This document shows, piece after piece, positions 189-46,042 of a stretch of DNA of 64,000 nt. Under the pieces are notes generated by a model. It did no database searches. It was not told where the DNA came from and worked only from the letters and a program-made list of their open reading frames with translations. Source of the stretch: a virus; the IMG/VR virus record IMGVR_UViG_3300002835_000017. The stretch is one strand, 5' to 3'. Position 1 is the first letter of the stretch; the number at the start of each line of letters is the position of its first letter. Made by a program: the position numbers and the translations under genes.

Positions 189-446
189 TTACTTTATACC
201 GTATTTTTTTTGAAAATCATCAAGATGTTTAGTATCTCCTCCTCCATACTTCATCATCATGTGCCTATTCCAATCAGTACTTTTAGAAATTTTATCATCA
301 TAATCTTTCCAAATATCCGCAAGTTCTGGACTTTTATCTCTTAATGATGATAACCACTCACTTTCTTTTCCATCGGATTTAGCTCGAAAAAAACTTTTGA
401 AAAATCCCATTAAACCGGCTTCTGTTATTTTTATTTTTTTAGACAT
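189..446 (-). CDS. Hypothetical protein with short basic leader ending I-T-E (possible protease-processed virion protein)
   Basis: 85-aa ORF, MSKKIKITE|AGLMGFF; late-promoter motif at 470-478. Confidence 0.6.
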   Translation of the reverse strand: MSKKIKITEAGLMGFFKSFFRAKSDGKESEWLSSLRDKSPELADIWKDYDDKISKSTDWNRHMMMKYGGGDTKHLDDFQKKYGIK

Positions 447-28930: not shown

Positions 28931-29119
28931 CTAAAGAAACCCCAAATCTTTTTGATTTTTTCTTATAGATTTTTCTTTTTGTAACCTATTTTTAACGGAT
29001 GGTTTAACAAATGTTTGTCTTTCTCTTAACTCTTCTGTTTGTTTAATATTTTGAATTTTTTTCTTATATTGTTTCAGAGCCGATTCTATATTACCGTTTT
29101 TAATATCAATTATAATCAT
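28931..29119 (-). CDS. rpsU: Phage-encoded ribosomal protein bS21
   Basis: 62 aa, basic; NIESALKQYKKK...ELRERQTFVKPSVKNR matches the bS21 signature. Confidence 0.85.
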   Translation of the reverse strand: MIIIDIKNGNIESALKQYKKKIQNIKQTEELRERQTFVKPSVKNRLQKEKSIRKNQKDLGFL

Positions 29120-29503: not shown

Positions 29504-30139
29504 TTAATATGTTCCAGGCCTATCACCCTTTTTCATAGTATCTGCCCACATTTGGAACATTTGCTTGATATCATTTGGTAATTTTTTATCTCTTATACTT
29601 AACGTGCCATCCTTACTAATATGAGCAATTATTTTATAATCACCATATTGTTCTTCGGCTCTATTCCAAATAGTTAAACCATTTCCCATCCATCCAGAAC
29701 CGATATCGTATTTTTTAGCTTCTTGAATTGAAGTTCTACCCAATCTTTCTTTCATAACTTTTTCTGAAACATTAGCTATTTCAAAATATCTACCCAACAC
29801 ATTCCCCATATCTTCATATAGAGCTTCCAACCTTTGTTCCTGTGCACGTGCTTCTAATGATTCTTTTTCAAATGCAGATTGTAATTTTTTTAACTCACTC
29901 ATATTACGTTTAATAGTAACTCTATCAAACCAATCACCACCCTCTCTTAATGTATATTCTTGGGCAGCATCAGCGATACCACCCAAAGTTTCTGCAACTT
30001 GTCTGATATCAGATTTTCTACTCATTCCTTCTCTATGTTGTCCATAGGTAGAAATGATTTCCAAGAAATGTTTTTTCATTTCGGTTGGGAGTTGTTGTAA
30101 CTCTTCCGATTCTTTGAGTAAGTTTTTTAAACGTATCAT
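29504..30139 (-). CDS. Probable internal head protein (two modules)
   Basis: MIRLKNLLKE leader; internal SIQE|A junction. Confidence 0.55.
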   Translation of the reverse strand: MIRLKNLLKESEELQQLPTEMKKHFLEIISTYGQHREGMSRKSDIRQVAETLGGIADAAQEYTLREGGDWFDRVTIKRNMSELKKLQSAFEKESLEARAQEQRLEALYEDMGNVLGRYFEIANVSEKVMKERLGRTSIQEAKKYDIGSGWMGNGLTIWNRAEEQYGDYKIIAHISKDGTLSIRDKKLPNDIKQMFQMWADTMKKGDRPGTY

Positions 30140-30140
30140 A

Positions 30141-30401
30141 TTATTTTTTTAATATATCGTTTTTCTTAATTTTTGAAACGTATCTCATCATTTCTTGTTT
30201 GTCAATTCCCATAGCATCGATTACCTTTGCTAATACAAGAATTTCTTTTTTACGAGAAAGACTCATTCCTTTAATTTGAGCTACCATTTTATCCAAATAT
30301 CTTTCTATAGATACTGGTAAATTGGTATCTAAATCATCCAATGCTTCTTTAACTACTTTATCGTTAATTGCTTTTCCAGGTACTAAATTTACTAGTTTCA
30401 T
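30141..30401 (-). CDS. Hypothetical protein, possible internal head protein
   Basis: MKLVNL...VVKE|A leader; directly after the protease gene. Confidence 0.5.
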   Translation of the reverse strand: MKLVNLVPGKAINDKVVKEALDDLDTNLPVSIERYLDKMVAQIKGMSLSRKKEILVLAKVIDAMGIDKQEMMRYVSKIKKNDILKK

Positions 30402-30406
30402 ATTTG

Positions 30407-30997
30407 TTAGTTTAATTCTATTATAATTTCTCTCATCAAATCTTGTGGTTTACACCACTTACCACATTCTTCTGCAACTTTTGCCCATTGCTTTGATTCG
30501 TTCATTGGTGCCATAAATGCTCCATGTGTAGATGGGTTTGATACAAAATCCCAACCTACTAATTCAAAATCTTCCTGAACCATTACAGTACCATCTCTCA
30601 ATTCCTTTACTGAACCCAAACCTCTAGATGAGATACCTAAACGGATATTGTTCTTTAGTAATTCTCTTAAAATGTTTCCTGATGGAGTTGAAAGTATTTC
30701 TACTACACCGTATACATCATCGCCTTCCCAATAAATTTCTCTAATGTTATGTGATACATTCTTTAAGTTGATAACAGGAGAATCAGGATGGTCCAACTCA
30801 CCCAGTGCTCTGCGTTCTTTGATAAGTTGTTTGTATTTTTGACATTCTCTCTCTAATATTTCTTTAGGATATCTTCTACCATTTTGGTTAGCAGCACCTG
30901 CTCTTTGCAGAATACCCTTTACCAAATAGGTTCCATTTTCTTCTTTTTGAAGTTTTGCTTCAAATAAATGGGTTTCTATTAATAATCCTTTATTCAT
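30407..30997 (-). CDS. g21: Prohead core protease (T4 gp21-like)
   Basis: NQNGRRYP, ALGELDHP, NVSH, TPSG, LGISSRGLGS, WDFVSNPSTHGA. Confidence 0.95.
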   Translation of the reverse strand: MNKGLLIETHLFEAKLQKEENGTYLVKGILQRAGAANQNGRRYPKEILERECQKYKQLIKERRALGELDHPDSPVINLKNVSHNIREIYWEGDDVYGVVEILSTPSGNILRELLKNNIRLGISSRGLGSVKELRDGTVMVQEDFELVGWDFVSNPSTHGAFMAPMNESKQWAKVAEECGKWCKPQDLMREIIIELN

Positions 30998-30998
30998 C

Positions 30999-31454
30999 TT
31001 ATTTTATATCTTTTTTAACTTTTTCAATTGCCGTGTCTTTATCGTTAGACCAAGCTTTCAAAAATATATTTTTTAAACCACTTTCTAAATCTGCTTTATC
31101 AACATTATCGTTATTTACTTTTTTAATAAGAGATTGAACATACGCAGATTTAACCATTTTATCTGCAGCTGCATCGTTTATTCCGTTATTCTTTTCAATA
31201 TATTCAGTAACATCACTTATAAATTTTTTATTTGATTCTAATTTATCTAATATTCCTGATATTTCTTTTTCAGTTTCTTTAGAACCATTAAAGTATTTAA
31301 TTCCTTTTTCTACTAATTCTCCTATATAATAAAATGCAATTTTACCAATAAGGATACCACTTAATGTTGCAAGTATTCCTAAAGCTAAATTTTCATTTAC
31401 ACTTTTTTTTTTCATTACTTCAATTAATATGGATTTTAACTTTATCATCTCCAA
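30999..31454 (-). CDS. Probable internal head protein with a hydrophobic helix
   Basis: MIKLKSILIE...SVNE| followed by LALGILATLSGILIGKIAFYYIG. Confidence 0.55.
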   Translation of the reverse strand: MEMIKLKSILIEVMKKKSVNENLALGILATLSGILIGKIAFYYIGELVEKGIKYFNGSKETEKEISGILDKLESNKKFISDVTEYIEKNNGINDAAADKMVKSAYVQSLIKKVNNDNVDKADLESGLKNIFLKAWSNDKDTAIEKVKKDIK

Positions 31455-32047
31455 GTACCTCTTGCCTGCATAAGTTTTTTAAACATTTCAGGTTGTTTCG
31501 CACGGCTCTTTTCTAATTCTTGAGTTAATCTTTCTACTTCTGCTTTAAGTTTGGCTGGCCATTTATCATAATTTTCCCACGGAAATTCAAATTTATTACC
31601 AAGTGTAGTTCTTATCAATTGGCGTTGTTTATCCAATATTGCACCACTTTTAGCAAGTGATGCTTTATAATCGGCTTCCAACTTGTCTATTTCTTTTCCT
31701 TTGAATTTATCAAGAACTGGTGGCCAGTCAAATCTTTCATCTCCCGCTTCGTTTGTTTTACCAGCTCTTAATGCTGCTAAATCTGAACCTTCAATTTCGC
31801 CATCCTTATCTACATCAATTTTCTTTTGTCCTGCAGTTAGTTCTGCTTCATTATATCCTCTTAATCTACCTTCTGATTTTGCTTTATAAGCAGTATCTAC
31901 GGCATTAAAGAATTTCTTCTTATCATCGTCAGACATATCTGCAATTGATTTACCAGTTTTATCTAACATGTGCTTAAACAATTGTTGATAATCTTGCTCC
32001 TCTCTAATTGTTTGCTTAACAAACTCTTTTAGTTGATGTAGTTTCAT
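31445..32047 (-). CDS. Modular probable internal head protein including an EF-hand-like DxDxDG loop
   Basis: MKLHQLKEFVKQTIREE leader; YNE|AELTAGQKKIDVDKDGEIEGSDLAALRAGKTNE|A. Confidence 0.55.
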   Translation of the reverse strand: MKLHQLKEFVKQTIREEQDYQQLFKHMLDKTGKSIADMSDDDKKKFFNAVDTAYKAKSEGRLRGYNEAELTAGQKKIDVDKDGEIEGSDLAALRAGKTNEAGDERFDWPPVLDKFKGKEIDKLEADYKASLAKSGAILDKQRQLIRTTLGNKFEFPWENYDKWPAKLKAEVERLTQELEKSRAKQPEMFKKLMQARGTWR

Positions 32048-32095
32048 TACTTTTATTTTGTATTACGCCTTCTTTACTGTATAAATATATATATT

Positions 32096-33625
32096 TTATT
32101 TATCCATTGTAGATTTACCGAAAACTCTTTGTATTTGTGATTTACCAGAAGAACCTACCTTTGATTGTAATATTTTAAGTGCTTCCTTTTTCAAATCAAT
32201 AGGATGTGAATCGAACCATTCAATAGTACCTTCATTACTTTTTATTGCTCTTCGTCTCTGTCCACCATCATCAATATAATCGGTATAAAAATCATAATGT
32301 CTTAATATGAAATCTGCTAATTCTTTTCCATTTTTTGCGGGTGCGTTTTGAATTGCTTCGTTCATAGATTCATATTTAATCATATCTGGATTAAACTTTT
32401 CAAAATTCTTTCTTGCCCATTTTACGGCATCTTCATAAGAATTAAATTTAATCCTATCCTGTTTGAACCCTTTTTTCTTATTTAAAAAATCAATATAAAC
32501 TTTATCTTCATTTACTGATTCACTAACTACCTTATCGCCCCAAAACGATACTGATGGCATGTTTCCGAATGTTGTATCATATTTAGAATCAATGCCAAAT
32601 CTTGATTTTAGGATTTTAACTACCCCACTACCAAATTTTTTATCTGTTAGTTTAAGATAAACTTTATTCTTATTACCACCATCTTTAATTTGCCCACTTA
32701 CAAATTTTGAACCTATTGATTTGATAATATCATCTACTACATCTGCAACGAGGTATCCTTTCAAATCAGATTCGTTTACTGATTCTTCTACTCTATTCAT
32801 TTTCTCATCCGATACCCAATATGCCGTTGAACCACCGATTGAATTACGGAACATCTTTTCCATTTTTTCAGCGTATTTTTTAGCATCATTATATGAACTA
32901 AATACCATTGGCTTACCAGTTGTTTTAAAGGTTTTTGGGTCAAATTCTTTTTCCAAATCTTTACCCTGTCCTCTACCTCTGTTGTAGCTTACATAGTATT
33001 TACCTTCGTTTATAGATTCTTTTAAGGTTCTTTTTTTAAGAATTATTTGTTGAATTTGTGAAAATATAGATTGTATATCTTTATCTAACTGCTTTTCATC
33101 TGCACTCATTGGTGATTCTATATCAACATTAGAGTAAAGTTTTTTCTTTTTAGCAATTAGAACATCTACCTTTTTAATTAAATCGTTTTTTACCTTATCT
33201 AAATCCTTTATGATTTCAGATGGAGTTTCTTCGTTTACTACACTATATCCAGTCAAATCAGCTTGTCTCTTTCCCTTCTTTTCTTCACTATCTTTACCGC
33301 TAAATGCAAATGGAGTATTGTATCCTTCAACACCACCAGTAGTATTCATTTCATCTACTTTTAATTCGGCATCTTTATACATATCACTAACTTTAGCATT
33401 TAATTCATCTGCTAATTTCTTCTTTTGAGTAGTTAGTGTTTTTAATTTTTGTATATGTTCTTTTTCAGCGGGAGTACCTTTGGATTTTTTATATGCTTCC
33501 AAATGCTTTTCCATTGCATCAATTACTTTTGAATAATCAGTTTGAATAGCTTTAACTGAACGTAATTCAGCCAACACCATTTCTTTGATTTTATTAGATA
33601 CTATAGTATTATTTGTAATTGACAT
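32096..33625 (-). CDS. Polyprotein-like protein with repeated ES(I/V/M)NE linkers
   Basis: VLAE, KVDE, VVNE, ESINE, ESVNE (twice), ESMNE separate ~40-90-aa segments. Confidence 0.65.
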   Translation of the reverse strand: MSITNNTIVSNKIKEMVLAELRSVKAIQTDYSKVIDAMEKHLEAYKKSKGTPAEKEHIQKLKTLTTQKKKLADELNAKVSDMYKDAELKVDEMNTTGGVEGYNTPFAFSGKDSEEKKGKRQADLTGYSVVNEETPSEIIKDLDKVKNDLIKKVDVLIAKKKKLYSNVDIESPMSADEKQLDKDIQSIFSQIQQIILKKRTLKESINEGKYYVSYNRGRGQGKDLEKEFDPKTFKTTGKPMVFSSYNDAKKYAEKMEKMFRNSIGGSTAYWVSDEKMNRVEESVNESDLKGYLVADVVDDIIKSIGSKFVSGQIKDGGNKNKVYLKLTDKKFGSGVVKILKSRFGIDSKYDTTFGNMPSVSFWGDKVVSESVNEDKVYIDFLNKKKGFKQDRIKFNSYEDAVKWARKNFEKFNPDMIKYESMNEAIQNAPAKNGKELADFILRHYDFYTDYIDDGGQRRRAIKSNEGTIEWFDSHPIDLKKEALKILQSKVGSSGKSQIQRVFGKSTMDK

Positions 33626-33636
33626 TTTAAATTAGT

Positions 33637-33861
33637 TTAAGCTAATACATAAACAGAACCACCATTGGTTACTGCTATACTTTTAACGTAACACGGAAAA
33701 GGTTCTCCTGCAGTTAAATGTGCTAATGAAATAGTTGTTCCACCTTCTAACGTAATTGTTCCAGTCACACCACTTACAGGTAATACACCCCAAACTCTAT
33801 CTATTAATGAAGCCGAACCTGATGTTACTAATTTTGCGTTATATGTTCTATAATTTGACAT
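33637..33861 (-). CDS. Small beta-rich protein, possible capsid vertex/spike base
   Basis: RVWGVL..VTGTITLEGG..LTAGEPFPCYVKSI pattern; within the head block. Confidence 0.4.
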   Translation of the reverse strand: MSNYRTYNAKLVTSGSASLIDRVWGVLPVSGVTGTITLEGGTTISLAHLTAGEPFPCYVKSIAVTNGGSVYVLA

Positions 33862-33864
33862 TTT

Positions 33865-34740
33865 TTATTTATTTAAACTATTTTTTAATTCTTTTAATAA
33901 TTCATAACTCATCATCATTGCGGATAGATGTTGTTCCTTAATTTTTTTAACCGATTTAATTTTTCTAATATTAGATATGGTTTCCGCTAATTTGATTTTT
34001 GTTACTTTATCTGGTATTTTAGAACCAACTTCCTTTAACCCATTGATTAATTTAATAATTTCGGTTGAAATATATTCATTCAATTTACCAGTGTTATTAA
34101 TATTATTTATATATTCTCTTAATAAAAGTTTTTGTTCTTCTGTAAGATTTTTATATTTGTTATTAAATGATTCTACTAGCATCTTATAAGATATTGCTCT
34201 CAAATCCTCATCCTGTTTTTTATATTCTTCTAAAACTGCATCTTTGATTCTAGCTTCTTTATTTTGAATAGATGAATTTATAATATTTTCAGCAATAGTA
34301 AATCTAGAACTTACAATATCAGTTGGGTCATATTGTTCATTAGTTGATACTACTTCAAATATTTTATAAATAGATGCTAATGTTTTGTAGTTAGAAATTG
34401 GAGATTTAATAAACTCATCTAAACCATAAGTTTCTTTAATTTGTTTAATTAAATTATACTTTTCTTTTATAAGCTTCTTTTCATCCAATTGTTTGCGTGC
34501 ATCTAAAATCGTATCTATAAATTTTTCAGCTTTAACTTCTGAATTATATTTTTCATTTATTAAAAATTGATATAATTTTAATTCTTTAGATAATTCTTTT
34601 TTAGCATTAAAATGTTCTTTCAATATAGTTTCCGCTACTGATTTACTAGAAGACATGATTTCAGATGTAATCTGTCTTACCAATAATTCAAATATAAATC
34701 CAGTATTCTTAAATTTAGAATGTTTAATTTTTTTCATCAA
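33865..34740 (-). CDS. Conserved hypothetical head-module protein downstream of the portal
   Basis: KIKHSKFKNTGFIFELLVRQ; helical; own late-promoter motif. Confidence 0.6.
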   Translation of the reverse strand: MMKKIKHSKFKNTGFIFELLVRQITSEIMSSSKSVAETILKEHFNAKKELSKELKLYQFLINEKYNSEVKAEKFIDTILDARKQLDEKKLIKEKYNLIKQIKETYGLDEFIKSPISNYKTLASIYKIFEVVSTNEQYDPTDIVSSRFTIAENIINSSIQNKEARIKDAVLEEYKKQDEDLRAISYKMLVESFNNKYKNLTEEQKLLLREYINNINNTGKLNEYISTEIIKLINGLKEVGSKIPDKVTKIKLAETISNIRKIKSVKKIKEQHLSAMMMSYELLKELKNSLNK

Positions 34741-34784
34741 TTTTTATAATTTGTCAGATATAAATATATTTTTATATTTCTTTA

Positions 34785-36527
34785 TTACCGTTTGGTTAAA
34801 TCTTCTGTCAAAATAGTTTTTTTATTACCATCCATATCTTTAAAAACTTCAAAATATGAACTCTTTCTTGGTTTATACGCAACCGAACCTTCTTTTGCTT
34901 TAAGAGTTTTTATTCCCAATGGGTCTCTACCTTCGGGATGGTCATCATGCCCATATCTAACAGGGTCTTTTGGTCTACCAACTTGTCCATCTAATTCAAG
35001 TTTCAATTTATTTAATTCTTCTTCAACATTAGTTGGACCACCTTCTACTCCTGTTTCCTTTGCAGGGTCTGTTCCTTGTGTTTCAATTGAAGTTAAACGG
35101 AATGTTTGTTTAGTATCTTCTAATACCTGCAACGTCATTTCATCCTGCTCATCTTTTGCCATCTTCATAACAGATTCATACATCCATTCTTTAGAGAACA
35201 TTTTTGTTTGTTGCATTTGTTGAATTAGGGCTACTTTAGAAGTGTATAATTCAACTTGCTCCTGCTCATAAATTCTAGATGGAACGGTTAATTCCAATGT
35301 AAAATCTGTTAAACGGTCATCGTTAATACCCTGTGAGTATAAGTGAACGATTGCAATTTTAGTTAATTCAGAAATTAATACTCTTTGAACTCTTTCAATT
35401 GTTTTAGCAAAACGGATATCCATTGATGCCAATGTTGCTTTACCATTAGTATCTTCTTCATAACCCAAATAAGCTTTTGGAATTTTAAGTGCAGCCATCA
35501 ACTTACCTTTTAAGTAGTTGATATCATCAATCATATTGTATTCTAAACCTTTTAACGTATCAATTGAAGTTCCATTATCACTACCTCGAACTGGCATATA
35601 ATAATCTTCAATAAGATTCATCATATTGTACTTTAAGTTGTACTCGCCTGTTTTTTCATCAACGAATGGAACTTTCTTCGATGCGTTGATAATTTTCTGC
35701 ATGTAGTTATCCACTTCGTTTGGTGGGATATTACCAACATCCACTTTAAAAATTCTCTTTTCAGGAGCTCTCATCACTCTGTGAATTAACATTGCATCTT
35801 CCATCAACATTAATTGTTTCCACACTCTTCTAGCTCCTTCAACCATAGACTTTCCATAAGGTAAGAAGTTTGAATCACCGTTTAAACGGAAGTGAGCAAT
35901 TTCATAATTTTCAAATTCCTTTTTAGTAGTCTGACCTACCGCCATATATGGATTTTGATATGGGGCATATACGAATTTAACTCTTTGTGGATTTTCAGGG
36001 TCAAATCCTTCTACTCTACTCATTTCGTATGATGATAATGGCATTACGTTTATAATTCCCAATTCATCCGCAATTTCTAATTCTAAAAAGAAATCACCGT
36101 ATTTTACCAAGTTTCGTGTCCAAGGCCAAAGGTTAAATTCTACATTAAGAATATCATAAAAAAGATTTTCTAATATTTGTTTAACATTATCATCATCGTG
36201 ATGAATTTTTAAAATATTACCTTGCTCATTTTTAGCAGTACATTCATCTGCATATACATCCAATGCGGATGATAAAATCGGGTCCATATCCATTGAATCG
36301 TAATCTCTGAAAAGGTCAATACGAACTTGCTGATATGCCATTGCAGATTCTACCCCACCTACACCGTAGTTACTCACTTTGAGCTTCATATAACGGTCTA
36401 CAAGGTTAGTTGTCATATTCTGATACTCATCCGTATCGACTATTTTAACTCCCTTTGCCGTTTTTCTAACTATGGTATTAGTTGAAAATAATTTTTGTAA
36501 CCTACCGAATAATGTTTTATCTGCCAT
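34785..36527 (-). CDS. g20: Portal vertex protein (T4 gp20-like)
   Basis: LMLMEDAMLIHRVMRAPEKRIFKVDVGNIP, EDYYMPVRG, IDTLKG, ALKIP, DIRFAKTIERVQ. Confidence 0.95.
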   Translation of the reverse strand: MADKTLFGRLQKLFSTNTIVRKTAKGVKIVDTDEYQNMTTNLVDRYMKLKVSNYGVGGVESAMAYQQVRIDLFRDYDSMDMDPILSSALDVYADECTAKNEQGNILKIHHDDDNVKQILENLFYDILNVEFNLWPWTRNLVKYGDFFLELEIADELGIINVMPLSSYEMSRVEGFDPENPQRVKFVYAPYQNPYMAVGQTTKKEFENYEIAHFRLNGDSNFLPYGKSMVEGARRVWKQLMLMEDAMLIHRVMRAPEKRIFKVDVGNIPPNEVDNYMQKIINASKKVPFVDEKTGEYNLKYNMMNLIEDYYMPVRGSDNGTSIDTLKGLEYNMIDDINYLKGKLMAALKIPKAYLGYEEDTNGKATLASMDIRFAKTIERVQRVLISELTKIAIVHLYSQGINDDRLTDFTLELTVPSRIYEQEQVELYTSKVALIQQMQQTKMFSKEWMYESVMKMAKDEQDEMTLQVLEDTKQTFRLTSIETQGTDPAKETGVEGGPTNVEEELNKLKLELDGQVGRPKDPVRYGHDDHPEGRDPLGIKTLKAKEGSVAYKPRKSSYFEVFKDMDGNKKTILTEDLTKR

Positions 36528-36583
36528 TTTAATATTTTATATCTAATTAATAAAGATAAGTAAATTTTTTCAATTTTCCAAAT

Positions 36584-37522
36584 TTACCATTTTCTACAAG
36601 ACCAATAGTTTGCTTTATGTCTTGGGCCTGGACTATCACAATTCATTCTTGCTCTAAATGATTTTCTAGCTGCAGGATTTGATTTTCTGATTTTCATTCC
36701 TTTTTGTCCAAAGTTTACCTTAACAACATTACCTTGTGGGTTCTTAACATATACTTTGAATTTCTTAACATCACCTTGCATTGGTTTACCCAATTGTACT
36801 TCTCTACCTTGATATTCTGCTTCTCTCAAACATTGACAACCTTCATTTAAGTTTTTATCATATCCTCGCATAAAAGCAATGAAGTCTTCCATATCCTCAT
36901 CTTCAACATCGTATTCTTCTGGTTCAACGTATCCGTAGTTTACATCATCATCTGAATTGATATCTTCACTTATAGGAACGCAATTAGGAACTTGTCTACC
37001 TCCCTTATCTTTCATACCAACTTGCTTATATCCATCCCAACAAGCCTCATTTAATTCCACACTTTCACTGCAAGTTTTCCAACCACCACCTTTTTCTTTG
37101 TAGTTTTTTGCAGCCCATCCGTTTGCGTATGCTGATGGATAAACATCAAATTTAGATTTTGCTGCTGCTTTAGATGCTGCCCATTTACCTGCATCGGTTG
37201 GGCAATTCTTTTCTAAAAATAGGTTTATTTTTTCTTCTATACTCATAGTTTCATTTTTTGGTTTGGTTGAAACATTTATTGGTTTTTTGCCTTGTCCACT
37301 ACTATCTTTACCACCTCTACCCGCATCATTTTGTGCAGCTCTTTTTCTTCTAGTAGCACTTTCTTTTTCTTTTTTACTCATTCCAGCAGCTTTTGCCGCA
37401 GGAACACATTTTGCATAACCCCTTTTTTCTCCCGAAGTTCCGCATGGCGGATGCTTACCATCGACTTTTTTGCCGATGTTTACCCATTTTTCTTTAAACC
37501 ATTTATCTAAATCTTCGTTCAT
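36584..37522 (-). CDS. Concatemer of small basic Cys/Trp-rich modules separated by x-x-E sites
   Basis: MNE|DLDKWFKEKW, FLE|KNCP..KFDVYPSAYANGW, LNE|ACWDGYKQVG, ISE|, LNE|, LRE|AEYQGREVQLGKP..YWSCRKW. Confidence 0.65.
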   Translation of the reverse strand: MNEDLDKWFKEKWVNIGKKVDGKHPPCGTSGEKRGYAKCVPAAKAAGMSKKEKESATRRKRAAQNDAGRGGKDSSGQGKKPINVSTKPKNETMSIEEKINLFLEKNCPTDAGKWAASKAAAKSKFDVYPSAYANGWAAKNYKEKGGGWKTCSESVELNEACWDGYKQVGMKDKGGRQVPNCVPISEDINSDDDVNYGYVEPEEYDVEDEDMEDFIAFMRGYDKNLNEGCQCLREAEYQGREVQLGKPMQGDVKKFKVYVKNPQGNVVKVNFGQKGMKIRKSNPAARKSFRARMNCDSPGPRHKANYWSCRKW

Positions 37523-37555
37523 CTATAAGAGTTTCAATATATAAATATAAAAAAA

Positions 37556-39163
37556 TTAACGAAGTAACCAAGTTAAGTTTTCTACCTCACCTCTACCCAC
37601 TTCCATTTCATACGGATTCTTGCCAGACCAGCCTGTGGAATATACTCCATCAAACTGATTTATTTGAGTTGAATTCAACATACTCTTTGTTAAATCAATT
37701 CCTTCTTGTCTCAAACGAAGTGCGGTGTTACGAACCCAAAGTCCGATTGCTAATGCCATTACCAAGTCATCATTGTATCCCTTCATTGCTTCTGCTCTAC
37801 CACCATGCCAAATAAATGTAAACATTTCATCTATCAATCTACCACTACGAATGAGGATATCCTTATCACTCATGTATGTATCCAATGCTGATATGATAAG
37901 AGGACGGGTTTTGGATGTTGTAGAGAATCCAGCAACCATTTGTTTTTCATCTCTATAAAACTTATTACTCATTTGTTTTTCAACATCAATATATTTTAGG
38001 TCATTACTCATATAGAATAAATTACCATACTGTCTATCAATTATTTGTTGAATACATGCCCAACCTACGTTTGAGTTTTCTACGACTAATAGAGCGTTAT
38101 TATATTCCGTTGCCAACGATGTTAAAAAATTACCAAAATGTTTTGTTTCAATCTTACCTCTGTATTCGGCTACTTGCGTACAATCTTCAATATCAATTAT
38201 TTGTGCAGTAGAATAATCGGCCCCATCTCCCCTTGCAACGTCAGCTACAACCATATATTGTTTATTGTAATTTGGATATTCCCAAATCCATAAATTATTA
38301 TCAAACCCTCTTTTTTCAATCGGGTCCATTACATAGGTATCTTTATACCAAGTCAATAATGCAGGGTCAATTATGGTATCACCAGAACCGATGAAGTCAC
38401 AATCACATTCTTGTGCCGAACCTTTAACTCCCAAAATACGGGTTTGTTCATCTCTCCACGCCTGATTTCTTTCAGGGTGAACTGTCCAATGTAGATTGAT
38501 ACAATTAAATCCGTTTGCACCACTCTCACCATCTACCCACATTTTGTGAAACCAGTTACCCACACCATTCGGAGTAGATAATACAATTGCAGCTCCACCC
38601 GTTGATAGAGTAGATTGCGCTGATAACCAAATTTCATCAATATCTCTAATGAATGCAGCCTCATCCACTACCAATAGGGATAGGGCTTCAGAACGTCCTG
38701 CATCAGGTGAGGATGCGATTGCTTTGACCTGTGAACCGTTTTTTAATTTAAGTGATAGTTTGTTATCTTCAGCTGCCGCAGTTCCTCCATCCCTCAACCA
38801 AACGGGAAGTAAATCGTGCATTACCCTAACTTTTTCTACGAGATTTTTAGCTACCGTCACTTTTGTTGCAATAACCAATGCATTATAATCCTGATTGAAT
38901 ATCATTTTCCAAAGAATAAATCCCGCAGAAAGAGTTGATAAACCTAACTGACGAGATTTTAGAATGATATTAAAACGATGGTCTTTAAAATCAGTTAAGC
39001 AATCCTCTTGAAAAGAATAAAGGTGAAAGGGTATTTTCCCTCTCACCGGATGTTGAATAACACAATATTTCTTCATAAAGTAAATGGGGTCTCCCGCGCA
39101 TTTACGATATTCTTCAGAAATTATTTCTTTTAAAGTTTTTTTTGGTTGTCCTTGAACTCCCAT
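37556..39163 (-). CDS. terL: Terminase large subunit (T4 gp17-like)
   Basis: KSRQLGLST (Walker A), LLVVDEAAFI (Walker B), STPNG, ADVARGDGADYS, NDDLVMA. Confidence 0.95.
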   Translation of the reverse strand: MGVQGQPKKTLKEIISEEYRKCAGDPIYFMKKYCVIQHPVRGKIPFHLYSFQEDCLTDFKDHRFNIILKSRQLGLSTLSAGFILWKMIFNQDYNALVIATKVTVAKNLVEKVRVMHDLLPVWLRDGGTAAAEDNKLSLKLKNGSQVKAIASSPDAGRSEALSLLVVDEAAFIRDIDEIWLSAQSTLSTGGAAIVLSTPNGVGNWFHKMWVDGESGANGFNCINLHWTVHPERNQAWRDEQTRILGVKGSAQECDCDFIGSGDTIIDPALLTWYKDTYVMDPIEKRGFDNNLWIWEYPNYNKQYMVVADVARGDGADYSTAQIIDIEDCTQVAEYRGKIETKHFGNFLTSLATEYNNALLVVENSNVGWACIQQIIDRQYGNLFYMSNDLKYIDVEKQMSNKFYRDEKQMVAGFSTTSKTRPLIISALDTYMSDKDILIRSGRLIDEMFTFIWHGGRAEAMKGYNDDLVMALAIGLWVRNTALRLRQEGIDLTKSMLNSTQINQFDGVYSTGWSGKNPYEMEVGRGEVENLTWLLR

Positions 39164-39164
39164 A

Positions 39165-39815
39165 TTATTTTTTTAATTTAATCTTCCAATATGTTCCAAA
39201 TCCAACATAAGGAGAGAATGCACCATTTATTCCATCGGTAGTTCTATTATTAACACCGATATTTAAGTTGTATATTTTATCTTTTTTTGTTTTAAGAATT
39301 AGACCAGCTCCTACTGCAGATACATAATCTTCTTTGTTGAATCCCCCATTCAAACCAAAATACACCTGATTTTTTGCAGGTTCTTTAACGATTAATTCTT
39401 CTTTGATGATTCTTTCTCTAACTTTAGCATCAAATGTTCTACCTAAAATTCTGTTTTGAGATATAGTATCAGTTACAGATACCGTTCCCAATGAATCAGG
39501 TAATACCAATACATCTTTGTATAATACTTTTGAGTAATAATTTTTAAGTAATGCCGCAGTATCTATATTAGATGGAATAAAAACTTCTTTCTCTACGATT
39601 GTTTCGTGATAAATATCTTCTCCTCTTTTAGTTACAACTTTAGTTTTGATTACATCAACGGTATCAATTGTATGTTTAATAACTTCATATTTTTTACCAT
39701 CTATTGTAATAGTTCTACCACCTGGCATAACTCCACCTGGATTAAACCATTGTAATAACACATAAATAATCAATGCTGCTATAGCAATGTTCTTAAAATT
39801 CAATAATTTTTTCAT
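39165..39815 (-). CDS. Membrane-anchored protein with beta-strand C-terminus (possible lysis/envelope protein)
   Basis: N-terminal TM IAIAALIIYVLL; DTV repeats; ends VGFGTYWKIKLKK. Confidence 0.5.
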   Translation of the reverse strand: MKKLLNFKNIAIAALIIYVLLQWFNPGGVMPGGRTITIDGKKYEVIKHTIDTVDVIKTKVVTKRGEDIYHETIVEKEVFIPSNIDTAALLKNYYSKVLYKDVLVLPDSLGTVSVTDTISQNRILGRTFDAKVRERIIKEELIVKEPAKNQVYFGLNGGFNKEDYVSAVGAGLILKTKKDKIYNLNIGVNNRTTDGINGAFSPYVGFGTYWKIKLKK

Positions 39816-39820
39816 AATTT

Positions 39821-40489
39821 TTAATTTTTTATAAGCTCTGAATGATTTAATTCTCGTAACTTATCTTCTAATGCTAACTTTCTTTCTAATAATGCTTCTA
39901 TTGCATCGTATGCTCCATCAATATCAGTTTTTAAATCAACTTTTACTTTTTCAATATCAATATCCCATTGCCATTTACTAAATGAACCATCTTCGTTAAG
40001 CATTTCAATTTGTTGAGTTACACTATTAAATGCTTCTTCTAATTGTGATTTAGTATCTCTAACAAAATCTAATTTATTTAATGTTATTCTATAATCTTCA
40101 TAAAACGCCCAACTACCATCTTCTCGTAGTGATTGTTCTATTTTTCTCATACAAGTTACACAATATCCAGTTCTAACAATTAATTTTTTATCTGCATTAC
40201 TATATTGTATTGTTCCACAATTTTCAGAAGAACAAGTTGTTAATTTTTTTAAATATTCTCTGGCATCATCTAATTTGGTGGTATTAATTTTGAAACCTTC
40301 TTTTTGTTCCCATTCATTACCAGCTTCATCTACCCAAATTTCTCCAACTTCTTTTTTTGTTTCATCTGCCTTTTCATAACCAAACACATTTTGATTATCA
40401 TCGGTTCTACCAAATACCGTATCTATAATTAGTTTACGAGATTTGTGTATGTGTTTATTTTTTTCGTCAAAACTTTTTCTTTTTGTCAT
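39821..40489 (-). CDS. Hypothetical protein with a Zn-finger-like CxxxxC...CxxC
   Basis: EVGEIWVDEAGNEWEQKEG; CSSENC and CVTC. Confidence 0.55.
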   Translation of the reverse strand: MTKRKSFDEKNKHIHKSRKLIIDTVFGRTDDNQNVFGYEKADETKKEVGEIWVDEAGNEWEQKEGFKINTTKLDDAREYLKKLTTCSSENCGTIQYSNADKKLIVRTGYCVTCMRKIEQSLREDGSWAFYEDYRITLNKLDFVRDTKSQLEEAFNSVTQQIEMLNEDGSFSKWQWDIDIEKVKVDLKTDIDGAYDAIEALLERKLALEDKLRELNHSELIKN

Positions 40490-40534
40490 TTTTCTATATT
40501 GTTATAACCTATTTATTAATAATATATATTAAAT

Positions 40535-43500
40535 TTATTCGTAAAATATACCTAAAATTTGATTTAGTGGTGCAAATGTACCTGTTAATTTATAAGTGTT
40601 ACCTTTATAAACGAATACAATACCTTCGTTTGGAACTATTTTATCTTTACCACCTATAGATGCTAATCTACTTAATTCCATTTTTAATTTAGCTATTTTA
40701 GATACATCACCACTACCTCTTACCTTTTCTGCAGTAGATTCCAATCTGCTTTTCATATCGGCAATTGCTGAATTTGGATTTGCGGTTAGTACTGAACTCA
40801 TAAATGAAAGAACATCAGCACCTACTCCCAAAAATATTTCTTCAAATTGTCTAACATTTTCTTTTTGTTGCTTTGCTACATTTACTTTATCATTTTCAAT
40901 TGCCCATTCTTGAGCTTCTTTATCAGCAATAGTATTTAAACGGAATGATTTATCACCAAATGCCCATCTTCTTACCAATGCTTCTTTTTCTAATTTTTGT
41001 AATTTAACTTTTGATTTATTTACAAAATTTTCCCACCATGCTTGATGATATTCGGAAACACCATCATTATTGGATAACCCAAATTCAGATTGTAATTTTT
41101 GTAATTTACTTAAATATTTATTTTGTTTTGCACTCAAATCTTCATTTTTAGGAAGTTGTGTGACAGGAGGTCCTTGAATTGTATACTTTGATTGAACATC
41201 GGCATTCACCTGCTTAATCATTCCTGCTAATTTAGTTGCAGCTGATTGGTCAGCACCTACCGCACTTCCTTTTTCATCATAACAAGTTGTGTTATGGAAT
41301 ACTAAAAGAGCCTGTCCATACGGAATAACATTTACCGAAGTTGGCCAAATTACTTCCAAATTCATAAAACACTGACCTTCGTTAAATATTTTCTTTCGTT
41401 GTGGTTCTGAAAGAGATTGAACTGCTGCTGATAAATCTTTCATTGCAAAGTTATAAGCATCGGTTAATCCACCTCTGCCACCAAATTTAGATGCAACATC
41501 TTCAATTCCCATTGCGTTTGCTCCTGCATTTGCCAAATGTCCTTTGTTTCTTGCTGCAATTAATCTACCATTTTTCCAACTGATTGCCAATGCCTGTCCA
41601 TCGGTTTTTTCTCTTGTCAATTCCAATTCACCAGTTAATGCACCAGTTATTATGTTTTTTAAATCACCAAAAGTTAAATCCATATCATCAAATGGGTGAG
41701 ACATGTGCCCGTATGCACCACCTTCAGTTAAAAGAGATTCATTTACTAATCCTGTTTTTGAAAAATCACCTTTAATAGTACCACTTTTATTTACTGAATA
41801 AACACGAACACCAGCTTTTTGAATTTCGTCTGCCACTTTTTCTACAACATCAGGAGATACTTTATAAAAACGAAGGAAATTATTACCATCATAACTATAT
41901 CCATTATTTACAATATTATGAAATCCTCTTACAGAAGTAGATGTAGTTTTCATTGCATTTACACCATGCTTTTTCAAAATAGCATTTACCACCTTTTTTA
42001 CAGGATTCATTTCCGCTTCGTTTAACTTAACTCCTGCGTATTCTAATCTATACTCATAGTATTCTTTTTTAATATCATAAGGAACTTTTGAATTCTTTCT
42101 GAATATTTCATCTACCATCTTTCGAGTATCGTTTGATGATAGTTTCCATTTTACTTTATCTTTATCTAATGTAAAAAAAGTATTTAAAGTAAAATCTATT
42201 TTGGTCAACATCGGTTTCAAAATTTCATTTTTAAAAAATGAATAGTATTCTTTTCGTTGTGAACCATCTAAATAATTAAGAGCGAAATCGGAATCATACA
42301 ATTCGTTTTCTAATGATTTTGCAATCATCTCCAAAACATATTTTTTATCGTTGTTACCGAGATATTTTTCTTCACCACTGCCAATTACATATTTGTACTG
42401 ATTACCCACCAAATCTTTTAATTTGAGTTCGTTTAATTTACCAGTATCGGTTTTGAAAAACGGACCTCTTCTTACACTTCTAAAGTCTAAACTCATTTCG
42501 TTTCCAAAAATTTCTGTAGGTGCAAGTATTTTCAATCTAATAGTTCCGTTTTTATTATCTACACCTAAAGTTTCAAATTCAATTTCGGAATACTTTTTAC
42601 CCTTAAATCCTAAATTCTTACCAGTAATAAACTTATGAACTTTACCACCACTAACTGCCTGTGCTTCTTGTAGGTTTGTTTTTTCAGCTAAACCCAACTT
42701 ATCAGTAACATACGTTACTTCTTTATATCCGTAGTTTTGTAATTGTTTAACTACATCGTTTCTATCTGCTTTAGGGTCATTACAAACAATTGCTCCAATC
42801 TTTTTTCTAGCAAATGAACCTGCGTTATCCCATATTTTCATAATTGCTTTGAAGTGCCAATCATTTGAACCAACTTCTTTTAAAGATTTTGCAGGTTCAT
42901 ATCCTCTATCTTCAGTATCTTTTTTATCTATTTGATGTCCTACCTGCTTTGTAGTATCATCAAAATCAACTGTATCCAATTCTGCAGGATATCCCAAATC
43001 AGGAGTGTAATTACCAGTTCTATGATGATGTAGAAAATCTTTTTGAGCACCACTTTTTGCGTGTTTTGAATGAGTTACTACACCTATAGATTCTCCTCTT
43101 GGTATTCTGAATGTTGTTGCCTTTTTACCATTAATCGTTGGCATTCCGTGGTCATCAGTTCCAATATCTTTAACGGTAACTTTTTTGTTCTTAAATTTAC
43201 CCATCAAAACTTCATCACCCTTATCAACATCTAAATTAATGTCTTCTTTAACAAAATCAGTTTCTACATATTCTACATTTGGTAAATTTTTTATAGTATA
43301 CTTTATAGTTCTTTCTTCCGCTTCATCATCTCCAAATATAGCATCTGCTTTTGGAAATTCAGTTTGTGTGTATCCACCATTTTTGTACCAAGCTTCACCT
43401 TTATCGGTATCTAATGCTCTCTTCTTGCCTTTCTTTATAAATGCGCCATCTGGAACATCTGCGGTGTTTGCAGTTTGAACATTACTAACTTCGTTATATA

Positions 43501-46042
43501 TTTGTTTATTTATTCTTCCATACTCTCTCATCAGAATTCCAGCTACGGCATGTGCTTGGTTTTCTATAGGAGAACCATCTGCCCCATCTTTTTCTGCATT
43601 TCTAACTAATCCCAACTCATCTTGCTTTCTATGAACCATTTCATGTGCAAGTGTACGAAGTATATCCGCTGTCAATCTACCCTCTGTTGCTACATATATT
43701 GATTTATCATCTGGATTATACCCACCCAAAGATGTTTTTACTTCAGCAAATTCTCTACCACCAACTAATGTTACATTTGGAGATTCTTTTAACTTCAATC
43801 TTTTAGTTGCAAACTCTACAAAGTTCTGAATAGATTGATGTTTTGATTCAGATAAATCCTCTTTCATCAAATCCGAAGCGTTAGCCATCGATTGGTTTTT
43901 AGTTCCTTCTTTTTTATATCGAGCAATCGTTTGTATCAATTGTTCATCGGATAGTTTATAGTTTTGCATTATTTCTAATGTTTTTTCTATAAACTTTGGC
44001 ACAAACTTTTTCGTATCAAATTCTTCTTCACCCTCTTTATTTTCAAATATTTTAGCTACCCCTAATGCAATACCTCCTAATGAAGCTTGTGCTTGATTAG
44101 CTCCCAATGATTCAAACGCAGAGTGTTTTATTATATCTTTAACTATATACGCCCCCAAATTCCCTCCTCCAAATTTGGTTGCTATTCCTGCACCAGCTCC
44201 TTGTATAACACCACTAATACCCGCTCCTTTAGATGCGGCCGCAATACCTCCTATCAATCCTCCGGTAACTGCGATTGAACCCATAATTATTGCGGTAGTT
44301 TTTACTAAACCTCCAACGGCCTTTTTTTGTCTTTTACTTTCTTTCCAAGACTTTTCCGCTAATTCTCTTTGTTCCGGTGTTAAATCTTCTCTAAATACGG
44401 GTTCTTTTGTTGTTTTTGGCTTTCCTAACCAATTTTTTTCTTGTACCTTATTTCCATCCGCATCCACTACATCATGACCATGTTTATCTTTTTTATAAAC
44501 AGGAACTTCTTTCATTTTAGGTTTGCGATTTCCAAAAGCATTTAACTTACTTGTAGTTGAATCAGGTTCTGTAAAATCATCCCAATGTTTAGTTTTACCC
44601 TCTGAATCCTTAACACCTCCCCATCGTCCAGTGGTTGCCAATGATTTTATAGCACTACCTGTTCCCACCAGCATTTCTTTGTTATGCTGATATGTATGCA
44701 TAATGCCATGCCCAATCTTTGATGCTGCTTTTTTTAGTACACTCATAGCCCCTTTTCTTTCTTCCGATTGTGGGCTATTTACTTTATCAATTGATTCGTT
44801 ATCTTCTTTTGATAATCCTTTTCTAGCATTATTTAAATTTTCTGTTGTTTTCGCGTCTTTCTTTTCTTTATCAGATTTTTCGGCAGACGATTTTAACTCA
44901 CCTCCACTTAATTTTTGAGATGGTGGTGGCGGTGGTGGTGGCGGTGGTGGTTTTGGTACGCCCTGTTTTGGTTTCGTTGCATCCACCTTACCTTGTGCAG
45001 TTGCCCCCTTATTTACAGGTTGCCCTGGTTGTGGCGGTGGAGGTGGTGGAGGTGGAGGTGGTTTTGGTATTCCACCACTTTGTTTTTTCTTAACTGCATC
45101 AGCTTCGGCAGGAGTTAGGGTTCTAATTTTACCATCGTCAGATTTGTGACTCGCAGGTCCTTTAGCATCTTTACCATAGTATCCACCACCCAAATGTTTT
45201 AATCCCATTTTTTCGGCTTCACTTTCTTCGTTAAAATATGTTCTGGTAAATTCTTCGAACATTTCTTCCATTGCAACTCTACCAAGTATTTCTGCAATTG
45301 GGTTATATAACTCATTCGTTGGATGTTCGGTTTCATGCCGTGTAGGATGTGGTTCGGGTCTCATTTCATACGATGGCTTTGTATTATTGCTCTCATCCGT
45401 TGAACCCGTTGGTGCACCATTAATGTATCCTCCTGGAAGATTTAATCCAGTTCCTATACCACCTGGAAAACCATTTTCATTTAATTTACCTGTTATCATA
45501 CCGAATACCTCTTTATCAAATTTTGGATATGCTTTTAAAAATCCCTTTTTCTTTTCATCATCACTCCCTTTACCCAACCAATTACGAACATCTGTTCCAC
45601 TAATTGGATTTGGTTCAGCAGGAACGGCGTATACATATCCAATTTCCTCGTATCCGTATCCAGCTTTTTCTTTATATGGTTTAAAATATTTACCTGCTAA
45701 TCTATCTGCATCCTTTTCTCCAACTGCCGCAACATACGCAGTAGTTTTACCATCAAATTGAGATAATATTTCTTTTGGAGCATACGGATTACGAACTTGA
45801 ACTATCTTATTCGATGGTATTCCAAACATTGTAGTAATTATTTTTACCTTCTCATTAAAATTAAAAGGAGATTTTGGTCCTGATGTATCATTGGAGGTTC
45901 CAATATATACATTTGATTTTCCAAATTTTTGAGCAAGTTTTAAATAAGAAACATAATGCCCCTTATGGAATGGTTGGAAACGGCCGGAGTATACTACTAC
46001 GGTTTTTTTTACTACTGGTTTATCTTTTTCGTTTAAATTCAT
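40535..46042 (-). CDS. 1835-aa multidomain polyprotein: HxGH nucleotidyltransferase, Pro-rich and hydrophobic segments, zincin HExxH domain, small domains, C-terminal KxDG ligase-like domain
   Basis: YSGRFQPFHKGH...ISGTDVR; LRTLAHEMVHRKQ...IENQAHA; GGAYGHMSHPFD...EKTDGQ...NEGIVF...KLTG. Confidence 0.75.
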   Translation of the reverse strand: MNLNEKDKPVVKKTVVVYSGRFQPFHKGHYVSYLKLAQKFGKSNVYIGTSNDTSGPKSPFNFNEKVKIITTMFGIPSNKIVQVRNPYAPKEILSQFDGKTTAYVAAVGEKDADRLAGKYFKPYKEKAGYGYEEIGYVYAVPAEPNPISGTDVRNWLGKGSDDEKKKGFLKAYPKFDKEVFGMITGKLNENGFPGGIGTGLNLPGGYINGAPTGSTDESNNTKPSYEMRPEPHPTRHETEHPTNELYNPIAEILGRVAMEEMFEEFTRTYFNEESEAEKMGLKHLGGGYYGKDAKGPASHKSDDGKIRTLTPAEADAVKKKQSGGIPKPPPPPPPPPPQPGQPVNKGATAQGKVDATKPKQGVPKPPPPPPPPPPSQKLSGGELKSSAEKSDKEKKDAKTTENLNNARKGLSKEDNESIDKVNSPQSEERKGAMSVLKKAASKIGHGIMHTYQHNKEMLVGTGSAIKSLATTGRWGGVKDSEGKTKHWDDFTEPDSTTSKLNAFGNRKPKMKEVPVYKKDKHGHDVVDADGNKVQEKNWLGKPKTTKEPVFREDLTPEQRELAEKSWKESKRQKKAVGGLVKTTAIIMGSIAVTGGLIGGIAAASKGAGISGVIQGAGAGIATKFGGGNLGAYIVKDIIKHSAFESLGANQAQASLGGIALGVAKIFENKEGEEEFDTKKFVPKFIEKTLEIMQNYKLSDEQLIQTIARYKKEGTKNQSMANASDLMKEDLSESKHQSIQNFVEFATKRLKLKESPNVTLVGGREFAEVKTSLGGYNPDDKSIYVATEGRLTADILRTLAHEMVHRKQDELGLVRNAEKDGADGSPIENQAHAVAGILMREYGRINKQIYNEVSNVQTANTADVPDGAFIKKGKKRALDTDKGEAWYKNGGYTQTEFPKADAIFGDDEAEERTIKYTIKNLPNVEYVETDFVKEDINLDVDKGDEVLMGKFKNKKVTVKDIGTDDHGMPTINGKKATTFRIPRGESIGVVTHSKHAKSGAQKDFLHHHRTGNYTPDLGYPAELDTVDFDDTTKQVGHQIDKKDTEDRGYEPAKSLKEVGSNDWHFKAIMKIWDNAGSFARKKIGAIVCNDPKADRNDVVKQLQNYGYKEVTYVTDKLGLAEKTNLQEAQAVSGGKVHKFITGKNLGFKGKKYSEIEFETLGVDNKNGTIRLKILAPTEIFGNEMSLDFRSVRRGPFFKTDTGKLNELKLKDLVGNQYKYVIGSGEEKYLGNNDKKYVLEMIAKSLENELYDSDFALNYLDGSQRKEYYSFFKNEILKPMLTKIDFTLNTFFTLDKDKVKWKLSSNDTRKMVDEIFRKNSKVPYDIKKEYYEYRLEYAGVKLNEAEMNPVKKVVNAILKKHGVNAMKTTSTSVRGFHNIVNNGYSYDGNNFLRFYKVSPDVVEKVADEIQKAGVRVYSVNKSGTIKGDFSKTGLVNESLLTEGGAYGHMSHPFDDMDLTFGDLKNIITGALTGELELTREKTDGQALAISWKNGRLIAARNKGHLANAGANAMGIEDVASKFGGRGGLTDAYNFAMKDLSAAVQSLSEPQRKKIFNEGQCFMNLEVIWPTSVNVIPYGQALLVFHNTTCYDEKGSAVGADQSAATKLAGMIKQVNADVQSKYTIQGPPVTQLPKNEDLSAKQNKYLSKLQKLQSEFGLSNNDGVSEYHQAWWENFVNKSKVKLQKLEKEALVRRWAFGDKSFRLNTIADKEAQEWAIENDKVNVAKQQKENVRQFEEIFLGVGADVLSFMSSVLTANPNSAIADMKSRLESTAEKVRGSGDVSKIAKLKMELSRLASIGGKDKIVPNEGIVFVYKGNTYKLTGTFAPLNQILGIFYE

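Follow-up and report, generated by a model that had tools for sequence, protein, structure and literature searches.

Leader-tagged module strings beside the prohead protease of a freshwater T4-type phage are probably packaged into the head and cut apart at a K-E-S-[VIL]-N-E joint

The 64,000-nucleotide stretch of virus record IMGVR_UViG_3300002835_000017 analyzed here (the window) belongs to one phage contig of 145,144 bp and carries every one of its genes on the minus strand. The phage is a freshwater, T4-type phage, a myophage with a T4 core. An earlier reading of this DNA (the original prediction) had noticed that open reading frames (ORFs) near a gp21-like protease start with similar basic leaders ending in Glu and that their apparent domains are bounded by hydrophobic-x-E sites, and had proposed that the phage packs strings of unrelated domains into the prohead, cuts them apart at maturation and delivers them. 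We found that this observation is real and for the most part goes beyond chance. The informative motif is a specific K-E-S-[VIL]-N-E joint rather than generic hydrophobic-x-E, and this joint fits the cutting rule of the phage's own head protease. The module-string proteins are probably packaged in the head and cut apart at maturation, and the arrangement as a whole is best explained, with somewhat better than even confidence, as a T4-style capsid-targeting and prohead-processing system that has been extended to shuffled polyproteins.

The protease matches Peptidase_S77 (PF03420) with an E-value of 5.5e-31 and 108 bits against a curated cutoff of 27 and shares 37% identity with T4 gp21 (BLASTP, E 5e-26), as had been claimed for this ORF. 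Its GELxHP (GELDHP here) and SSRGLGS motifs are kept, and H70 and S123/S124, which we take to be the catalytic residues, are invariant in an alignment with Flavobacterium phage vB_FspM_immuto (immuto), Microcystis phage Mel-JY01 and T4, all of which marks it as a true S77 member, a serine protease of the gp21 type. LIE8 and PMNE167↓S (the arrow marks a predicted cut) are candidate self-cleavage sites; for MNE167↓S, in the tail, the aligned sites are LNE↓G (immuto), MGE↓G (Mel-JY01) and ITE↓S (T4). In the major capsid protein (MCP), E59-A60 of LLDE59↓A is invariant and aligned with LTE65↓A66 of T4 gp23, the known maturation cut, and the upstream site GLLE34↓G aligns with T4 LLE18↓G; LLDE59↓A is the likely MCP maturation site and VMLE a less likely one. 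The scaffold, whose first 62 aa match an immuto protein in scaffold position, carries four [IL]NE sites, with AVINE434↓ standing 16 residues before the C-terminus. All sites originally listed for expected substrates (LLKE, RLRE and VINE in the scaffold, VMLE and GLLE in the MCP, ILTE in the portal and PMNE in the protease) are present. The portal ILTE cannot be told apart from chance.

A protease-based scan of IMG/VR returned 305 related stretches, of which 80 were kept as relatives with proteases 92-99% identical; counts over relatives include related sequences, and the events behind them are not phylogenetically independent. Among these 80 stretches the genes on either side of the protease, and also the one that separates terminase from portal, vary widely in number and length.

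All leaders quoted in the original prediction exist at their ORFs, minus strand throughout (Table 1), and Glu-ended leaders do head unrelated proteins; MSKKIKITE proved indistinguishable from chance. The leader-bearing proteins are products of late genes next to those for head morphogenesis, and three leader types recur in the relatives. L1, M(A)KL[IV]NL[IV]P...E, measures 11-19 aa and heads four unrelated protein families, L2, MI[KR]L[KR][DN][IL]L.E, measures 10 aa and heads three, and L3 heads one family only and is on that account weaker evidence for a shared address tag. The likeness to the T4 capsid-targeting sequence (CTS) consists in a leader of about 10 aa that ends in hydrophobic-x-Glu, is common to unrelated proteins, and is hydrophobic at positions 4, 7 and 8 with Glu at 10. 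Compared with the T4 CTS MKTYQEFIAE, the leaders MIRLKNLLKE (type L2) and MIKLKSILIE agree at position 4 (L/L), 7 (L/I), 8 (L) and 10 (E); L1 agrees less exactly with this layout. In T4, positions 4 and 7 direct targeting and positions 8 and 10 processing (PMC9026906). The tripeptide of the joint also terminates many leaders (..DLLNE↓, ..DLVNE↓, MKLNE↓, MNE↓). Several leader-bearing proteins continue into a hydrophobic helix, and the relatives place other short LNE-ended leaders before such helices; the ejection protein gp47 of phage SPN3US, with a membrane helix after its propeptide, offers a parallel (PMC5694885).

For the chance test each protein was shuffled, and all 147 ORFs were ranked genome-wide. 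The rule as originally worded did not hold up, since generic [LIVMF]-x-E occurs at background level in most of these proteins when compared with their shuffles. What is enriched is [LIVMF]-N-E, and the excess of [LIVM]-N-E is the highest genome-wide in four proteins. Hydrophobic-N-E sites number 8 in the 1835-aa protein (1.9 expected), 5 in the 509-aa protein (0.6 expected; four of them are ES[IVM]NE), 4 in the scaffold (0.7 expected) and 3 in the 312-aa protein (0.26 expected).

The 509-aa protein consists of six modules parted by VVNE132↓, ESINE207↓, ESVNE285↓, ESVNE373↓ and ESMNE423↓, and the length of its homologues among the relatives ranges from 147 to 578 aa. BLAST alignments to these homologues end exactly at Glu132 (..GYSVV[N/K/S]E↓), after which at least six different sequences follow, and in some relatives the third or fourth module comes directly after the first. 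When 1.84 billion cluster representatives were searched exhaustively with the 509-aa protein (HMMER), 732 matched at E <= 1e-3; the matched stretches are the six pieces set by the five sites, found at any position in proteins of 84-1909 aa. In the best 150 of these 732 representatives, modules 2-5 almost without exception have [V/I/L]-N-E directly before them and at their own end, with differing neighbors, the site preceding module 5 in 34 of 34 and ending it in 33 of 34 cases, and preceding module 3 in 42 of 45. These 150 diverged representatives hold 394 [LIVM]NE sites against 58.6 expected, at a median spacing of 76 aa.

An AlphaFold2 (AF2) model of residues 126-382, built from 86 aligned rows and with a mean predicted local distance difference test (pLDDT) score of 66.9, folds into a helical hairpin followed by two alpha/beta domains. 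Its three segments with pLDDT <50, read as disordered linkers, contain sites 132, 285 and 373, and site 207 falls on a domain boundary, where the hairpin ends, immediately ahead of the first strand of the domain that follows. Foldseek of this three-module model against the PDB gave no match at E <= 0.001; the rows returned were generic, of helical-hairpin or histidine-kinase-like type. The 257-aa three-module piece was aligned for this purpose in place of the whole protein, whose MAFFT alignment with 145 module fragments was discarded as the fragments were misplaced (identities 14-20%). As a separate observation, the array gene upstream of the protease starts MPAVSKAQQRFMGMVHAAQKGD in most relatives (L005, L017, L022 and others), and the window protein has MSITNNTIVSNKIKEMVLAE.. 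replacing that N-terminal piece; the first ~47 residues are thus exchangeable too.

Among 807 distinct locus proteins, homology breakpoints, at which two proteins cease to be homologous although both go on, fall exactly after hydrophobic-x-E in 13% compared with 2% expected (6-fold) and exactly after hydrophobic-N-E in 5% compared with 0.3% expected (about 16-fold). Breakpoint enrichment, the module flanks in the 150 representatives and the AF2 linkers agree that the sites bound domains, and modules standing alone or reshuffled with the same flanks, a check proposed with the original prediction, were found in relatives, swapped, inserted or deleted exactly at the joint Glu. In the joint logo a K is followed by E (70%, P5), S (69%, P4), V62/I19/L15 (P3), N and E, with A, S, G or E next; the sites counted are defined by Asn at P2 and Glu at P1. 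Nearly all information precedes the scissile position and P1' is merely small, which is the pattern expected for a gp21-type site cut after Glu.

Closer examination of the 1835-aa protein, whose gene lies two genes upstream of that for the large terminase (TerL), revealed a chain that begins with MNLNE5↓ and an NMNAT-like nucleotidyltransferase ending at LNE189↓ (Pfam CTP_transf_like, residues 17-153, and PHROG 395). An HExxH domain follows at about aa 733-933, with the motif HEMVH shared with ~890-aa relatives and weak Pfam hints of a metallopeptidase below the cutoff (DUF6782, E 0.017). Then come small shuffled modules bounded by VKE933, LKE1056, LAE1120/LQE1126, LNE1205, LNE1342 and VNE1435/LTE1440, and after these a KxDG C-terminal domain. 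Modules 1052-1118, 1123-1200, 1206-1342 and 1343-1435 recur within short arrays of relatives, with breakpoints at LKE1056, LAE1120/LQE1126, LNE1205, LNE1342 and VNE1435. Most relatives have a ~890-aa core of NMNAT-like domain, HExxH domain and C-terminal domain, and by this comparison the window version has been enlarged by inserted modules. FNE64, within the Pfam-matched NMNAT-like region, and FNE1555, within the conserved C-terminal domain, are probably chance occurrences. Two runs of 10-11 prolines (aa 333-343 and 369-379) and an 80-aa hydrophobic stretch rich in Gly and Ala (..AVGGLVKTTAIIMGSIAVTGGLIGGIAAASKGAG.., aa about 585-665), which looks membrane-active, were also observed in this protein.

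The C-terminal domain (GG.YGHM.HPFD..) begins directly after a hydrophobic-x-Glu in every case, namely at LLLE↓GG, LLME↓GG or SLNE↓GG in the window phage and close relatives, IAE↓GG in Mel-JY01 and IME↓GG in the distant ENA contig L085. Its EKTDG motif is invariant in 52 relatives. A model of it (pLDDT 66) gave T4 Rnl2 as the best Foldseek match at a weak E of 0.049, and VIA likewise returned weak matches to Rnl2 (Z 5.0, root-mean-square deviation 3.6, 106 aligned) and a fungal tRNA ligase (Z 4.8); a PDB sequence search and Pfam gave no significant match. Short copies that seem to stand alone (P0163 and P0189, starting MEGG.., and P0158) are probably miscalled or truncated ORFs and were not used as evidence for free modules. 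In one relative, ORF P0269 (compare window 40535-41734) opens with what looks like the C-terminal part of an intein (..ANDILVHN↓TDGQALAISW), located precisely within EKTDG; were it an intein, its position would point to a catalytic role of the motif.

The 312-aa protein is an array of small Cys-containing modules (DUF5872-like) with sites at MNE3↓, ELNE159↓ and NLNE227↓. Its residues 4-69, 115-144 and 234-312 match separate PHROGs whose profiles are about one module in size, and relatives insert a ~76-aa module between ..VVSE↓ and ..VNE↓. The CWKGY module stands after the internal LNE159↓ in the window phage and directly after the leader MKLINLIPLKE↓ in relatives. Similarly, the first module, DLxKWF, forms a gene of its own behind the leader MIRLIDLLDE↓ in relatives and has only MNE↓ before it in the window phage.

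Comparable arrays were found at greater distance. The cultured phage immuto encodes an 841-aa protein with 7 [LIVM]NE sites (0.7 expected) and several genes that start MKKLIRIVE, MRLLELLRE and MKKSQLRQIIKE; in these genes no sequence similarity to the window phage was detectable. Contig L085 carries two arrays. One, of 717 aa, starts MKLNE↓ and has six joints, five of them ES[VI]NE; the other comes immediately after the S77 protease of the contig, is 818 aa or longer, opens with MKKLKDLLNE↓, a leader of the L2 type, and bears five more sites.

These features point to the following course. Like the T4 CTS, the leaders would attach to the scaffold core during its assembly and so carry the proteins into the prohead, where the protease would cut after the Glu of every leader and joint as well as in the MCP at LLDE59↓A, in the scaffold and in its own tail at MNE167↓S. 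Cutting would free the modules as separate small proteins within the head. More weakly, we infer that freed pieces such as the NMNAT-like enzyme, the HExxH domain and the KxDG ligase-like domain may stay with the DNA and enter the host. Loading into the head plus cutting by the protease is, on these sequences, modestly favored over the alternatives taken together, and the reading of the pieces as an effector cocktail ranks clearly below it, because the four conserved leader-bearing families may be core proteins and the modules are without assigned function. The count of over 20 effectors given originally is arithmetic that presumes a cut at every site.

Gene order bears directly on what the cut pieces might be. 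The window order (portal, 290, 74, 509, 200, 149, protease, 86, 211, DUF5856, S21, scaffold, MCP) mirrors the T4 order portal-67-68-21-22-23, so that the variable genes, in a slot bordered by the portal gene and reaching to the protease, occupy exactly the place of the T4 prohead core genes 67 and 68. Four leader-bearing families occur in nearly all relatives, and because of this conservation and their position at the gp67/gp68 slot the small leader-bearing proteins may be parts of the prohead core instead of effectors. The scaffold bears the same sites, and multiple sites per substrate are known to aid fragment clearance (PMC5694885, PMC9026906). The proteins could thus be cut by the prohead protease and yet be core or scaffold filler that helps to build the core, is cut into small pieces and is expelled before DNA entry, as are T4 gp22, gp67 and gp68, with no delivery at all. 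Like these three, the window genes lie between portal and protease/MCP and are rich in hydrophobic-x-E, and T4 gp68 itself carries INE↓ and LNE↓. We nevertheless consider this unlikely. Gene content and module order are hypervariable despite proteases that are 92-99% identical, which suits an arms race better than a structural role, and the modules are folded units of 50-140 aa rather than short peptides and include an NMNAT-like enzyme domain. Neither gp67 nor gp68 showed detectable sequence similarity, and the window genes are far larger, modular and hypervariable.

The exchange of modules at the joints would also be compatible with joints that are never cut, ESVNE being a conserved flexible linker and recombination-tolerant junction within multi-module proteins that act whole. 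The codons at the joints bear on this. Asn is encoded by AAC in 14 of 21 window sites compared with a background of 31%, which hints at some effect at the DNA level. Ser and P3 hydrophobic codons vary synonymously, so that the peptide rather than a DNA joint appears to be conserved; a fixed DNA recombination joint was rejected on the same ground, and nine conserved bases would be too few for homologous recombination. A linker would moreover have no need of an invariant Asn-Glu with fixed Glu-Ser-Val across unrelated modules and distant phages, and the same tripeptide terminates N-terminal leaders of 3-11 aa, which a linker between domains cannot account for. We rate uncut joints as quite improbable. 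As a side observation, AAC was also found in 10 of 11 distinct locus joints (loci L003-L082), again compared with 31% background.

A third possibility follows the model of polyvalent proteins, in which the metallopeptidase embedded in the 1835-aa protein, and not the prohead protease, would process the polyproteins, either before packaging or in the host. HEMVH lies in a conserved domain of this protein and of its ~890-aa relatives, the weak Pfam hint (DUF6782) points the same way, and autoprocessing of this kind was predicted by Iyer et al. (PMC5512222). The sites themselves argue for another enzyme, as their information is wholly non-prime with Glu at P1, which is the gp21 rule. Zincins typically read P1'. 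The same site ends leaders and sits in the MCP, the scaffold and the protease tail at T4-aligned positions, and contig L085 has two ESVNE arrays beside its S77 protease and an NMNAT protein that lacks the HExxH motif (22 kb of the contig covered). Processing by the HExxH domain is on this evidence highly improbable. Asn-dependent self-cleavage was set aside, as it would depend on a catalytic fold around the site, and the modules on either side are unrelated.

Several points weigh against the favored explanation, namely loading into the head by leaders and cutting by the prohead protease. Of the packed, cut and delivered cocktail originally proposed, the protease, the shared leaders, the module joints, the reshuffling and the T4-aligned sites stood, and the generic hydrophobic-x-E rule, being at background, did not. 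The AAC bias and the relatedness of the sequences counted, both described above, belong here as well, as does the HExxH domain within the 1835-aa protein, a possible processing enzyme. The 1835-, 312- and 509-aa proteins are without the full 10-aa leader (they start with MNLNE, MNE and a 20-aa N-terminus, respectively), and the modules are only mildly basic (+1 to +3). Searches of Pfam and PHROGs matched no leader-bearing or array protein to a T4 internal or core family, and PHROG, Pfam and fold searches found no function for the array modules. A literature search found no virion proteome for this lineage and none usable for Mel-JY01 or immuto; it also found nothing that links a prohead protease to modular cargo polyproteins.

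The closest known system is that of the T4 internal proteins IPI, IPII, IPIII and Alt with their CTS and gp21. The proteases are homologous, the MCP and protease-tail sites align, and in both phages the cargo genes are poorly conserved among close relatives. The window cargo candidates gave no Pfam or PHROG match to IPI, IPII, IPIII or Alt, and the resemblance would be one of mechanism and not of descent. In T4, ipII and ipIII are far from gene 21, whereas the cargo genes of the window phage adjoin the protease, and the window joint K-E-S-V-N-E is longer and stricter than the T4 site. Each T4 internal protein has one leader (PMC9026906), whereas the window phage chains many modules with internal sites.

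Polyvalent proteins (Iyer et al. 2017, PMC5512222) are likewise large multi-domain proteins encoded near portal and terminase genes, predicted to be packaged and processed, and combine enzymatic with unknown domains that include a zincin-like HExxH domain. With its NMNAT-like domain, HExxH region, KxDG domain and shuffled modules, the 1835-aa protein agrees with their format of 2-15 domains per polypeptide, enzymatic ones among them, in a virion or packaging gene context. They differ in that cutting is predicted here to be the work of the prohead serine protease, at one defined joint that recurs, in that polyvalent proteins have known effector domains and most window modules are tiny and of unknown function, and in that no MuF or portal fusion was seen in the window phage.

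In the giant phages phiKZ, 201phi2-1 and SPN3US (PMC5694885, PMC9026906) many head and ejection proteins are cut after Glu, at a short motif, by a protease related to gp21. A substrate can have several sites, the protease undergoes C-terminal autocleavage, and ejection proteins have a membrane helix that comes after the propeptide, features that are all predicted for the window phage. These phages take off propeptides of >100 aa at S/A/G-x-E, leaving a single mature body, whereas the window sites part independent modules at [VIL]-N-E.

The features described here and their neighbors are listed in Table 1. By its MCP the window phage is nearest, among named phages, to immuto (54.6%), Mel-JY01, the huge-phage record LR756508 and Rhodothermus phage RM378, and megablast of the region against named phages gave no nucleotide-level match. 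Three further genes of the head region were observed. The ribosomal protein S21 homologue is kept in the relatives (58-65 aa), and Mel-JY01 and contig L086 have one too. The DUF5856 protein, which is without a leader, might be another DNA-associated head protein. The Gly/Ser/Thr-rich ORF is present in all relatives at 74-195 aa, without leader and without a family match.

Table 1. Positions of head genes, leaders and module arrays in the window
Feature	Position	Strand	Remarks
ORF with N-terminus MSKKIKITE	189-446	-	
Major capsid protein, gp23 family	25761-27377	-	Pfam Gp23, E 1.4e-76
Scaffold-like protein, acidic, 450 aa, net charge -60	27406-28758	-	Synteny with T4 gp22
Ribosomal protein S21 homologue	28931-29119	-	phrog_21469, E 4e-7; between DUF5856 gene and scaffold
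DUF5856 protein, 123 aa	29125-29496	-	Matches phrog_858 ('starvation-inducible transcriptional regulator')
211-aa protein	29504-30139	-	Leader MIRLKNLLKE↓ (type L2, 10 aa); family kept in all relatives
86-aa protein	30141-30401	-	Leader MKLVNLVPGKAINDKVVKE↓ (type L1; originally quoted as MKLVNL..VVKE)
Prohead protease, T4 gp21 type, 196 aa	30407-30997	-	Pfam Peptidase_S77 (PF03420)
149-aa protein	30999-31448	-	Leader MIKLKSILIE↓, then VMKKKSVNE↓, then hydrophobic membrane-like helix
200-aa protein	31445-32047	-	Leader MKLHQLKEFVKQTIREE↓ (type L3); family in all relatives at 89-239 aa
509-aa module array	32096-33625	-	N-terminus ..KIKEMVLAE
P3-P1 codons of 509-aa joints 132, 207, 285, 373, 423 (in this order)	33230-33238, 33005-33013, 32771-32779, 32507-32515, 32357-32365	-	
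Gly/Ser/Thr-rich small ORF, 74 aa	33637-33861	-	Between conserved 290-aa gene and module array
Portal protein, gp20 family	34785-36527	-	Pfam Portal_T4, E 2.9e-72
312-aa module array	36584-37522	-	N-terminus MNE
Large terminase (TerL)	37556-39163	-	Pfam
1835-aa polyprotein	40535-46042	-	N-terminus MNLNE

If the joints are cut in the head, the protein cargo of virions would be far more diverse than the few known internal proteins and would come as reshufflable cassettes. We tentatively propose an expandable delivery platform, in which any small domain with a [VIL]-N-E flank could join a leader-tagged chain, be packaged along with the others at a fixed ratio, be freed by the head protease and enter the host with the DNA. 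Freshwater Bacteroidota-type T4-like phages might in this way carry rapidly reshuffled cocktails of dozens of mini-effectors and enzymes (NMNAT-, RNA-ligase- and metallopeptidase-like) that act on host defenses before phage gene expression, a proposal that is possible but doubtful at present. Under it, the polyprotein format would be the phage counterpart of viral polyproteins and polymorphic toxin cassettes. Were the joints cut in the head, a leader plus K-E-S-V-N-E joints beside an S77 protease would provide a sequence rule for finding injected phage proteins in metagenomes, as well as a natural multi-cargo form of the T4 CTS packaging tool and a large pool of uncharacterized mini-domains as candidates for early anti-defense functions. 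The lineage is abundant in lake metagenomes, with 305 IMG/VR stretches and 732 representative clusters for one protein, and through Flavobacterium phage immuto, a relative in culture, the claim is open to direct test.

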